Positions 15,477 through 23,607 of a stretch of DNA of 64,000 nucleotides are shown here, piece after piece. A model generated the notes under the pieces. That model searched no databases. It was not told where the DNA came from and saw only the letters and a program-made list of their open reading frames with translations. Both the position numbers and the translations under genes were made by a program. Source of the stretch: Escherichia coli (GTDB taxonomy: Bacteria > Pseudomonadota > Gammaproteobacteria > Enterobacterales > Enterobacteriaceae); the NCBI RefSeq assembly GCF_044324785.1, contig NZ_CP172127.1, one strand, 5' to 3'. Within the stretch, counting starts at the first letter, position 1. The number at the start of each line of letters is the position of its first letter.

Positions 15477-15881
15477 ATGGATCAGGTTGTTGTTTTTCAA
15501 AAGATGTTTGAGCAAGTGAGAAAAGAGCAAAACTTCTCCTGGTTTTATTCAGAATTAAAACATCACCGTATTGCACATTACATTTATTACCTGGCTACGG
15601 ATAACATCAGAATTATTACTCACGATGACACGGTTTTGTTATTAAGAGGAACCAGGAACCTGTTAAAAGTTAGTACGACCAAGAACCCTGCTAAAATAAA
15701 AGAGGCCGCATTGCTTCATATTTGCGGAAAATCAACATTTCGGGAATACTGTTCAACACTGGCAGGCGCGGGCGTTTTCCGGTGGGTTACTGATGTTAAT
15801 CATAACAAACGCAGTTACTACGCCATTGATAATACGCTTTTATATATTGAAGATGTAGAAAACAATAAACCATTAATCTAG
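15477..15881 (+). CDS. ycgX: Uncharacterised protein YcgX, 134 aa
   Basis: 134 aa; position between bluR and iraM. Confidence 0.75.
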   Translation: MDQVVVFQKMFEQVRKEQNFSWFYSELKHHRIAHYIYYLATDNIRIITHDDTVLLLRGTRNLLKVSTTKNPAKIKEAALLHICGKSTFREYCSTLAGAGVFRWVTDVNHNKRSYYAIDNTLLYIEDVENNKPLI

Positions 15882-16092
15882 CTAAAGTTGGAAGCTTAAG
15901 AAATGCTTCATAATTCAGTAAGACATTAGCATAATGGAAATAAAAGTGCAGAGACTATCCCTATGGATGATAAATACTATCTTTTTATTGCCACCCATAA
16001 ATAATCACCAGGCCAATACTATCAAATTGATATTTGAAATGTGATCACTTGACTTTCTATACGTTATTTTATAACGGTTAACAAATTTATAA

Positions 16093-16140
16093 AACCAACG
16101 GGCGTGCCATACGCCCGTTTCAATACTTAACGCACATGTG
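16093..16140. repeat. Second copy of the icd 3'-flank terminator hairpin (direct repeat with 16959-17004)
   Basis: aacgggcgtgccatacgcccgtttcaatacttaacgcacatgt versus aacgggcgtgttatacgcccgtttcaatatttaacacatgt at the icd stop. Confidence 0.8.
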
Positions 16141-16582
16141 TTTTGGTTTAGTCATCATCCGATTATATGTATTTTAGTCAGGAACGGGTTTAACCATTCC
16201 TATATAACTCAAAAATTGAAACCTTATTCTCAGGTCATGCTTATATTCATCATTATCATTATATTAAAAGGCCAATCATAATGTTTTGCAAATTGGCACA
16301 ACATAGCATAAAGGCTATGTTTTAATTACAGAATGTTCAGTCATTTGAATGTATAATATTTTAGCTAAACAAATCTAAAACGAAGTGAATAATTTAATGT
16401 TTTCACTAAATCTCATTTTGTTTAATCTCTATTGAGATTCCTTGCTTTAAATTTTTTTTATATAGGTAATGACATTAATTTTTAATTAATTTATTTTTTG
16501 GGGAGTAATATACACATATGCAAAATCAAGAAATGAACATCCAAATGAACTATATTAAACACCGTGGGATAAGACATAACAA

Positions 16583-16906
16583 ATGAAGTGGATAGTAATT
16601 GATACGGTAATTCAACCTACATGCGGCATATCTTTTTCAGCCATATGGGGTGATATGAAAATGATCATCTGGTATCAATCTACTATATTTCTCCCTCCTG
16701 GAAGTATATTTACACCGGTTAAGTCTGGTATTATCCTTAAGGATAAAGAATACCCTATTACTATTTATAACATCACACCATTCAACAAGGATTTATGGAT
16801 TTTACTCAAAAGCAGTCAAGAGTGTCCTCCAGGAGAAAGCGAAATAACAAATAAATGTTTACATAATAGTTGTATTATAAAAATATGCCCATATGGACTC
16901 AAGTAA
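16583..16906 (+). CDS. iraM: Anti-adaptor protein IraM (RpoS stabiliser), 107 aa
   Basis: 107 aa, [23 protein letters not shown]...; AT-rich; adjacent to icd. Confidence 0.85.
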
Positions 16907-16958
16907 TGGGCTTCATATAAATATGCTCGACATGCTATTAATAATATCCACATAAATA

Positions 16959-17004
16959 AAACAACGGGCGTGTTATACGCCCGTTTCAATATTTAACACA
17001 TGTA
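16959..17004 (-). terminator. icd rho-independent terminator (first copy of the repeat)
   Basis: Directly downstream of the icd stop on the minus strand: aacgggcgt-ataac-acgcccgtt then T-rich tract. Confidence 0.8.
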
Positions 17005-17008
17005 GAGA

Positions 17009-18259
17009 TTACATGTTCTTGATGATCGCATCACCAAACTCGCTGCATTTCAGCAGCTTAGCACCTTCCATCAGACGTTCGAAGTCATAGGTTACGGTCT
17101 TCGCATTGATTGCGCCTTCCATACCTTTAACAATCAGGTCTGCAGCTTCAGTCCAGCCCATATGGCGTAACATCATCTCAGCGGAGAGAATAATAGAGCC
17201 TGGGTTTACTTTGTCCTGACCGGCATATTTCGGCGCAGTACCGTGGGTGGCTTCAAACAGGGCGCATTCGTCACCGATGTTTGCGCCAGGGGCGATACCG
17301 ATACCGCCAACCTGCGCTGCCAGGGCGTCAGAAATGTAGTCACCGTTCAGGTTCATACAGGCGATAACATCATATTCAGCCGGACGCAGCAGGATCTGTT
17401 GCAGGAATGCATCAGCAATCACGTCTTTAATGACGATCTCTTTGCCGGTGTTCGGGTTTTTAACTTTCAGCCACGGGCCGCCGTCGATCAGTTCACCGCC
17501 AAACTCTTCACGCGCCAGCTGGTAGCCCCAGTCTTTAAACGCGCCTTCGGTGAACTTCATGATGTTGCCTTTGTGCACCAGGGTCACAGAGTCACGATCG
17601 TTAGCAATTGCGTATTCGATCGCTGCACGAACCAGACGTTTGGTGCCTTCTTCCGAACACGGCTTAATACCGATACCGCAATGTTCCGGGAAGCGAATTT
17701 TCTTCACGCCCATCTCTTCACGCAGGAATTTAATCACTTTCTCGGCGTCGGCAGAGTCAGCTTTCCATTCGATACCCGCATAAATGTCTTCCGAGTTTTC
17801 ACGGAAGATAACCATATCGGTCAGTTCAGGGTGTTTAACCGGGCTTGGAGTGCCCTGATAGTAACGTACCGGACGCAGGCAGATGTAGAGATCCAGTTCC
17901 TGACGCAGGGCAACGTTCAGAGAGCGAATACCGCCACCTACTGGAGTGGTCAGCGGACCTTTAATGGCAACGCGATATTCACGAATCAGATCAAGGGTTT
18001 CAGCAGGCAGCCAGACATCCTGACCATAAACCTGTGTGGATTTTTCACCGGTGTAAATTTCCATCCAGGAGATTTTACGCTCGCCTTTATAGGCTTTCTC
18101 GACTGCAGCGTCGACCACTTTCAGCATGGCTGGGGTTACATCTACACCGATTCCATCACCTTCAATGTAAGGGATAATCGGATTTTCAGGAACGTTGAGT
18201 TTGCCGTTTTGCAGGGTGATCTTCTTGCCTTGTGCCGGAACAACTACTTTACTTTCCAT
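17009..18259 (-). CDS. icd: Isocitrate dehydrogenase (NADP)
   Basis: 416 aa, [38 protein letters not shown]... Confidence 0.98.
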
Positions 18260-22857: not shown

Positions 22858-22874
22858 GGTTTATTTAATGTTTA
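22858..22874 (+). promoter_or_regulatory. PhoP box at the phoPQ promoter
   Basis: GGTTTAtttaaTGTTTA, a direct hexamer repeat with 5-nt spacer, ~60 bp upstream of the phoP ATG. Confidence 0.8.
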
Positions 22875-22935: not shown

Positions 22936-23607
22936 ATGCGCGTACTGGTTGTTGAAGACAATGCGTTGTTACGTCACCATCTTAAAGTTCAGATTCAGGA
23001 TGCTGGTCATCAGGTCGATGACGCAGAAGATGCCAAAGAAGCCGATTATTATCTCAATGAACATTTACCGGATATTGCGATTGTCGATCTCGGATTGCCT
23101 GACGAGGACGGTCTGTCACTGATTCGCCGCTGGCGTAGCAATGATGTTTCACTGCCGATTCTGGTATTAACCGCCCGTGAAAGCTGGCAGGACAAAGTCG
23201 AAGTATTAAGTGCCGGTGCTGATGATTACGTGACTAAACCGTTTCATATTGAAGAGGTGATGGCGCGAATGCAGGCATTAATGCGGCGTAATAGCGGTCT
23301 GGCTTCACAGGTCATTTCGCTACCCCCGTTTCAGGTTGATCTCTCTCGCCGTGAATTATCTATTAATGACGAAGTGATCAAACTGACCGCGTTCGAATAC
23401 ACCATTATAGAAACGTTGATACGCAATAATGGCAAAGTGGTCAGCAAAGATTCGTTAATGCTACAACTCTATCCGGATGCGGAGCTGCGGGAAAGCCATA
23501 CCATTGATGTACTGATGGGACGTCTGCGCAAAAAAATTCAGGCACAATATCCGCAAGAAGTGATTACCACCGTTCGCGGCCAGGGCTATCTGTTCGAATT
23601 GCGCTGA
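22936..23607 (+). CDS. phoP: Response regulator PhoP
   Basis: 223 aa, [19 protein letters not shown]... Confidence 0.98.

Follow-up and report, generated by a model that had tools for sequence, protein, structure and literature searches.

A 22-codon upstream ORF (uORF) ends on the start codon of iraM in the window (the whole stretch of Escherichia coli DNA that was analyzed, 64,000 nucleotides in length), and published ribosome profiling suggests that this uORF is translated. The anti-adaptor IraM stabilizes RpoS when Mg2+ is limiting and as part of the EvgA-PhoPQ acid-resistance cascade. The known controls of iraM are transcriptional (PhoP and H-NS), and a coupled uORF, if true, would add a post-transcriptional input. 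The explanation that we put first, with a little less than even confidence, is that the uORF is translated into an irrelevant peptide and hands terminating ribosomes to the weak iraM start, with a net positive effect on iraM.

The iraM locus and its predicted transcript

The genes ycgX, ymgL, ymgK and iraM follow one another on the + strand (Table 1); icd lies 3' of iraM on the - strand and purB-phoP-phoQ about 6 kb beyond. The preliminary description had the uORF run from an ATG at 16518 to a stop codon at 16584-16586, which is exact according to the ORF listing, and the overlap with the iraM start codon that it proposed can be read in the sequence as ATGA. The junction is AACAAATGAAGTGG, in which the uORF TGA and the iraM ATG (16583-16585) have TG in common, giving an overlap of 4 nt. 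The GGGGAG that was said to precede the uORF ATG by about 12 nt is likewise in place, with a spacer of 12 nt (TAATATACACAT). The K-12 counterpart of the uORF is MQNQEINILMNHIKYRGIRHNK (complement 1212000..1212068). The nearest genome is that of strain N3 (99.9% identity), and the iraM region is present in about 3,900 of 5,426 complete E. coli genomes.

Table 1. Coordinates of genes and sequence elements around iraM in the window
Feature	Position	Strand	Basis or remark
ycgX	15477..15881	+	
ymgL	15934..16044	+	
ymgK	16282..16326	+	
PhoP-box-like direct repeat TGTTTAatctcTATTGA, predicted activator site	16419..16435	+	two mismatches to KGTTTA-N5-KGTTTA
Predicted core promoter, -10 TAAATT 16448-16453, predicted start about 16460	16436..16460	+	conserved block and PhoP-box position
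G-rich SD-like element of the uORF	16500..16505	+	GGGGAG; strain-variable length
uORF	16518..16586	+	22 codons, ATG 16518, TGA 16584-16586 (ORF listing)
Weak SD-like GUGGGAU of iraM	16564..16570	+	within uORF codons 16-18; invariant GGA inside
ATGA overlap, iraM start codon and uORF stop codon	16583..16586	+	sequence reading, ORF listing
iraM, anti-adapter protein IraM, 107 aa, MKWIVIDTV...	16583..16906	+	ORF listing, RefSeq annotation of matching loci
icd	17009..18259	-	

The uORF carries no RefSeq/PGAP annotation at the matching loci, although ymgK and ymgL nearby are annotated, and its exact peptide sequences were not found in a collection of 15 billion proteins. It is not the annotated YmgK, which is a separate ORF of 14 aa about 255 nt upstream, nor is it the annotated YmgL, which sits at its own position (Table 1). 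Both YmgK and YmgL have been detected by epitope tagging (VanOrsdel 2018). YmgL (36 aa), YmgK (14 aa) and the 22-codon uORF are three short same-strand ORFs before the anti-adaptor gene. A 28-aa ATG ORF also lies antisense to the uORF (16491-16577, - strand), probably by chance.

The ymgK-iraM cassette of 866 bp is bracketed by 43-nt direct repeats that are 88% identical (16092-16134 and 16958-17000). Each repeat holds a hairpin (AACGGGCG...CGCCCGTT), and the one at 16958-17000 is the terminator of icd, on the - strand. The repeats look like an att-like duplication from the insertion of a cassette at the 3' end of icd, where e14 integrates in K-12. At the icd terminator region (16935-17004, - strand) the Rfam sRNA family tpke11 matches below threshold, with 22.3 bits where the gathering score is 43, probably by chance.

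A PhoP box ends about 25 nt before the transcription start. The iraM leader contains a PhoP-box-like repeat that is followed by a conserved TAAATT block, so that a start is predicted at about 16460, which would leave 58 nt to the uORF and 123 nt to iraM. Three PhoP-box-like matches, TGTTTAatctcTATTGA among them, cluster at 16366-16460, and iraM is described as PhoP dependent in a review (PMC10948607). Between ymgK and iraM the + strand has no terminator-like site, so transcripts from farther upstream would carry the uORF too. The supplements of Adams 2021 contain no iraM entry. A perfect PhoP box, GGTTTATTTAATGTTTA, lies at 22858-22874, 62 nt upstream of phoP (22936-23607); the phoQ start at 23607 overlaps the phoP stop by 1 nt, and only about 6 kb separate iraM from the genes that encode its activator.

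Ribosome profiling and sequence variation

Exactly this uORF is included in Table S4 of Fesenko et al., 'The Cryptic Bacterial Microproteome', in which GSE122129 (retapamulin data) and further sets were re-analyzed with smORFer (PMC11188072). The uORF has a TIS count of 113, an RPF count of 28 and a coverage of 0.91 in the MG1655 RET data (NC_000913.3, 1212002-1212068, - strand), and a TIS count of 283, an RPF count of 466 and a coverage of 1.0 in the BL21 RET data (NC_012971.2, 1200165-1200231, - strand); a second MG1655 RPF data set gives 19 reads and a coverage of 0.56 (PMC11188072). TIS counts in the same table are of a similar order, with 202 for thrL, 129 for rmf and 21 for hisL (PMC11188072), and the MG1655 count of the uORF ranks third among about 40 MG1655 RET rows in the slice of Table S4 around it. 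There is no Onc112 row for the uORF in that slice, whereas many neighboring ORFs have one. Judged by its SD duplex, the Ribo-RET signal and the RPF coverage, the uORF belongs among ORFs that have their own ribosome-binding site and are translated.

Ribosome density on the uORF had been proposed as a check in the preliminary description, and the Ribo-RET initiation reads at the uORF AUG in MG1655 and BL21 supply it. The same reads argue against a transcription start downstream of the uORF ATG, the case that had been named as refuting the proposal, since initiation footprints at the AUG imply that RNA covers it.

Fesenko et al. place the uORF in the class 'Intergenic', that is, without a coding-selection signature (dN 0.086, dS 0.098, dN/dS 0.877), and it is not in their Entero67K set (PMC11188072). 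They caution that most potentially translated intergenic smORFs are without selection and that many such signals may reflect spurious or low-level translation (PMC11188072). The uORF does not occur in the Weaver 2019 preprint, the main text of Stringer 2021 or the PIRT-seq supplements, and a low-Mg Ribo-RET study considers annotated small proteins only. The literature searched contained no tagged-protein detection of the uORF product, no link of iraM to a uORF, no uORF sequence and no uORF-mutation experiment. The uORF is present in a genome-wide supplement, yet it is neither named nor studied.

Leaders from 54 iraM-type loci were compared, 20 from diverse complete genomes and 34 from usable metagenome contigs. 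The 22-codon frame from ATG to TGA is intact in 54 of 54, in eight peptide variants, and the ATGA overlap is invariant in all of them. There are no indels within the uORF, though indels occur directly upstream. The integrity of the uORF was considered as a sign of selection and rejected: for about 10 substitution events, 8% of them disruptive, the probability of no disruption is 0.43 under neutrality, so integrity carries no statistical weight. Variable sites number 10 of 66 in the uORF and are distributed over the codon positions as 3:3:4; eight are nonsynonymous and two synonymous, compared with a neutral ratio of 4.7-5.7:1. Neither these sites nor the published dN/dS gives a sign of purifying selection on the amino-acid sequence of the uORF. 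On these comparisons the uORF peptide evolves neutrally, without a selected function, while selection on the existence of the uORF is neither shown nor excluded.

The leader as a whole varies unevenly. Codons 3-15 of the uORF have a variability of 0.26 per site versus 0.18-0.24 in the non-coding leader, and the spacer together with the first uORF codons has 0.11 per site. The most conserved block is 16436-16460 (0.04, with one variable site in 26 columns among 35 haplotypes). Variability is 0 in the last 20 nt before iraM, its initiation region, a value that is partly forced by the search pattern, yet this stretch is invariant in the BLAST-derived set too. IraM relatives in GTDB representative genomes are limited to the E. 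albertii iraL type and one contaminant contig; as the iraM leader is confined to E. coli, no deep cross-species comparison is possible. The contig in question (NZ_MTSD02000045.1, labelled Oceanospirillum linum) is 558 nt long with a coverage of 1.07, and its iraM leader is identical to the K-12 haplotype across all 245 nt that were compared. This contig, which carries both ymgK and the 5' end of iraM, is almost certainly a contaminant from E. coli in that assembly.

Initiation signals, leader structure and the chance of the overlap

The anti-SD duplex of the uORF is predicted at -8.0 kcal/mol in the window, while the best anti-SD pairing of iraM is -4.0 kcal/mol (GUGGGAU), identical in all haplotypes. 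The preliminary description had set the GGGGAG before the uORF against the absence of an obvious SD for iraM, and the contrast of a stronger uORF SD with a weak iraM SD holds, but the spacing to the AUG exceeds the optimum in both (10-14 nt from the end of the pairing for the uORF across haplotypes and about 12 nt for iraM). Apart from the SD element of the uORF the leader has nothing G-rich, and every haplotype retains this element in varying form. It is GGGGAG in the window and GAGGGGGGGG, GAAGGGG and others in other strains, with a G run of 4 to 11 or more. The forms found 12 nt upstream of the uORF ATG are GGGGAG, TGGGAG, GAAGGGG, GAGAGGG and GA plus a run of 5 to 11 or more G; they differ even between K-12-like haplotypes that are identical elsewhere, and also in metagenome contigs from Illumina data. 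With the length of the G tract, the SD pairing predicted for the different haplotypes ranges between -4.6 and -11.8 kcal/mol. The G tract may be a contingency-type tuning element, or it may in part be a homopolymer assembly error.

GGA is the core of the CsrA-binding motif and is used at iraD and evgA (PMC5574718, PMC11210196). Two invariant GGA motifs, 23 nt apart, bracket the iraM AUG at 16567-16569 (GUGGGAUAAG) and 16590-16592 (AAGUGGAUAG), and the window haplotype has a third within GGGGAG. A GGA inside the uORF SD is present in the window, in N3 and in related haplotypes and is missing from the G tracts of the K-12, B and O157 types. No data on CsrA binding to the GGA motifs of the iraM leader were found.

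The leader shows no excess of structure over shuffled sequences (MFE z = +0.77 and +1.58). In the centroid structure no base pairs involve the iraM initiation region, and opening this region costs 6.5-10.8 kcal/mol versus 9.8 +/- 2.6 for shuffles. With an unstructured leader and an ordinary opening cost, iraM could initiate independently. Structure-based coupling and a riboswitch-like element were rejected because there is no structure beyond that of shuffles, no unusual sequestration and no Rfam family match in the iraM leader. An iraD-type arrangement, in which a sequestered downstream SD is opened by the uORF, was not found. Without a structure that sequesters the SD, SD unmasking is not available at iraM, and termination-reinitiation at AUGA remains. 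The preliminary description had also offered a leader peptide, sensing or attenuating, as a reading of the uORF. This part finds no support, as the peptide is variable and the leader has neither alternative structures nor a terminator, and the features of stalling or attenuator peptides of the mgtL, tnaC and secM type are absent from an ORF that moreover overlaps the gene.

The uORF stop overlaps the downstream start on the same strand, which is the geometry of coupled uORFs. When the 256-nt leader was shuffled 5000 times with its dinucleotides preserved, 3.3% of the shuffles had an ATG ORF with 22 or more codons that stops at this ATGA, and 13% kept the overlapping frame open over that length or more. 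Of the 57 long ORFs in the window, 21 start xTGA. Leaving aside three true gene-gene overlaps, one of the 21 is overlapped at its start by a short ATG ORF, of 39 codons. The shuffle and window counts together lead to an expectation of about one such case per 64-kb window by chance. The overlap of the uORF with iraM is real, but the geometry alone is not significant. The ATGA itself is due to the conserved Met-Lys-Trp start of IraM, which is common to IraL. The 39-codon case, the only other short one among the xTGA-start long ORFs of the window, overlaps the ATGA start of a 309-aa ORF at 63600..62671 (- strand) and may reflect a mis-assigned start.

Related loci serve as natural controls. The start ATGAAGTGG with ATGA is common to iraM, iraL and the AST85-type iraM. 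Leaders of iraL carry a 24-codon ATG ORF (MVYIQKYHLYFSEHHQQDINKETK and MVYNQKYHLYFSEHHQQGINKETK) in E. coli ST131 (L061, 332-406) and in E. albertii (L003, 1430-1504). This ORF is like the iraM uORF in length and in its identical ATGAAGTGG overlap with an IraM-family gene; the leader, however, is unrelated, and iraL has a better-placed SD (AAGGA, 5 nt). The transcription start of iraL has been mapped by 5'-RACE in CFT073. The ATG of the iraL ORF falls within the -35 element (ATGGTTTACA), and the sequence matching the CFT073 start (with 1-2 mismatches) lies 39 nt downstream of this ATG, so the ORF is not on the mapped transcript. The iraL leader is a decisive negative control for the geometry, in which the same overlap arose by accident. 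The AST85-type iraM has no ATG uORF, and its overlapping frame is open for only 15 codons. In E. coli AST85 (L021, 392-652 and 888-1211) this iraM allele follows a gene of the YmgB/AriR family, and its leader is unrelated to the usual one.

Proposed coupling, its rivals and known leader ORFs

Under the coupling that we tentatively prefer, the uORF would be carried on the iraM mRNA, downstream of the PhoP-dependent start, and would be translated at a low to moderate level into a peptide without a selected function. Its ribosomes would terminate on the iraM AUG at AUGA and a fraction of them would re-initiate, adding to the weak SD-driven initiation of iraM, that is, termination-reinitiation coupling with a net effect on iraM that would be positive and of meaningful size. 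Altered initiation at the uORF would then alter IraM synthesis on top of the transcriptional control by PhoP and H-NS. Initiation at the uORF might be modulated by the G-tract SD, which varies between strains, by the binding of a protein or sRNA, or by ribosome availability; we know of no trans-acting regulator of the iraM uORF. G-tract variation in the ribosome-binding site of the uORF could explain differences in RpoS levels between strains.

Nearly as likely as coupling is pervasive, inconsequential translation, in which the uORF would be an unselected frame that arose by chance in an AT-rich leader without structure, and ribosomes would pick up its exposed AUG close to a G-rich patch. The geometry occurs in 3.3% of shuffles and at 1 of the 21 xTGA-start ORFs of the window and recurs by accident before iraL, and such a reading fits the neutral evolution of the uORF (dN/dS 0.88, 'Intergenic' class), the missing Onc112 row, the missing annotation and the absence from protein databases. 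The statement of Fesenko et al. that most such smORFs are unselected and may be spurious points the same way (PMC11188072). However, a ribosome that terminates on AUGA sits on the iraM start, and some effect in cis is expected if the uORF is really translated. The initiation signal recurs in two strains and is high for its class, the sole G-rich patch of the leader is kept in every haplotype, and two related regulators (iraD and evgA) use this arrangement functionally, all of which speak against translation without consequence. If the uORF is inert, it is a documented case in which a textbook geometry of coupling and a Ribo-RET peak that can be reproduced are nevertheless noise. An opposite, repressive or sensing effect is improbable. 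Ribosomes on the uORF would cover the iraM initiation region and lower its independent initiation, or they would pause on the rare GGG-AUA-AGA of codons 17-19 and make iraM translation respond to translation stress or Mg2+-dependent ribosome function. The last eight uORF codons are indeed the iraM initiation region, which elongating or paused ribosomes must occlude, and the rare AUA and AGA codons are invariant and lie 4-5 codons before the uORF stop; iraM also belongs to the PhoP/low-Mg2+ response (PMC10948607). The invariance of codons 17-19 is equally explained by the iraM initiation region, however, AUA-rich usage is general in the AT-rich cassette, and there are no alternative RNA structures, terminator, arrest motif or conserved peptide.

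It is very improbable that the uORF is off the relevant mRNA, with an induced iraM start at or downstream of its ATG (for example from TAATAT at 16506-16511 as the -10) and the uORF absent or leaderless. The leader has sigma-70-like matches at 16469-16497 (ATGACA-17-TATTTT) and at 16506-16511, and the spacer with TAATAT is well conserved, but promoter-like matches number 11 against 8.6 +/- 2.8 in shuffles, which is no excess and argues against reading them as promoters. Initiation-complex footprints at the uORF AUG in two strains need RNA there, and the uORF is preceded at a distance of 60-100 nt by the PhoP-box-like site and the most conserved block. Less improbable than either of the last two, though still unlikely, is a stronger form of coupling in which the uORF gates IraM synthesis. 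Most IraM would come from re-initiation, and the hypervariable poly-G SD (4 to 11 or more G) would be a heritable tuning knob and possibly the target of a trans-acting regulator such as CsrA. If gating were true, strains would differ in the strength of RpoS stabilization under low Mg2+ or acid signals, and evgA, iraD and iraM, all three of them experimentally studied entry points of the network, would share leader ORFs with an overlapping stop and start.

Termination-reinitiation coupling at iraM can be compared with leader ORFs of other regulated genes. The PhoP-activated mgtA has a short translated leader ORF, mgtL, which relies on alternative RNA structures and on Rho-dependent attenuation and stops far short of mgtA. 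At iraM there are neither alternative structures in the leader nor a gap between the ORF and the gene. Vecerek and coworkers reportedly found in 2007 that translation of the short upstream uof is required for efficient translation of fur, and uof is said to be the target of the sRNA RyhB. The iraM proposal is similar in that a short upstream ORF would be a handle for post-transcriptional control of a regulator.

The acid-resistance cascade runs in the order EvgA, SafA, PhoQP, IraM. At its head the stop of evgL overlaps the start of evgA, a start-to-stop mutation of evgL abolishes evgA'-'lacZ expression, and CsrA binding has been mapped (PMC11210196). Both loci have a leader ORF whose stop lies on the start of a regulator gene of the same acid/RpoS cascade, and evgL, too, came to light in initiation profiling; coupling was shown at evgA by mutation of evgL and CsrA was mapped there, whereas the iraM uORF is known from sequence and profiling. 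At iraD, Park and coworkers (2017, mBio) showed that the stop of ORF27 overlaps the iraD start, that ORF27 is translated and that its start-to-stop mutation lowers iraD expression (PMC5574718). CsrA acts on iraD entirely via ORF27 and binds GGA sites at the ORF27 SD, and the iraD SD is sequestered in a hairpin (PMC5574718). Neither the ORF27-iraD paper nor the evgL-evgA paper mentions iraM (PMC5574718, PMC11210196).

ORF27 and the iraM uORF (27 and 22 codons) each precede the gene of an anti-adaptor of RssB, place their stop on its start, have an SD of their own and are translated. The iraD leader also has the translated ORF23 and ORF47, where the iraM side has ymgK and ymgL; the table of VanOrsdel includes ytiB (33 aa) between yjiC and iraD. 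The two loci differ in that coupling at iraD is proven by mutation and involves a sequestering hairpin, while the iraM leader has no such structure, and their sequences are unrelated. The window haplotype, unlike K-12 and most others, has a counterpart of the GGA of the ORF27 SD at the SD of the iraM uORF. If the uORF is coupled, iraM would mirror ORF27-iraD and evgL-evgA, suggesting a recurring design for low-expressed, horizontally acquired stress connectors.
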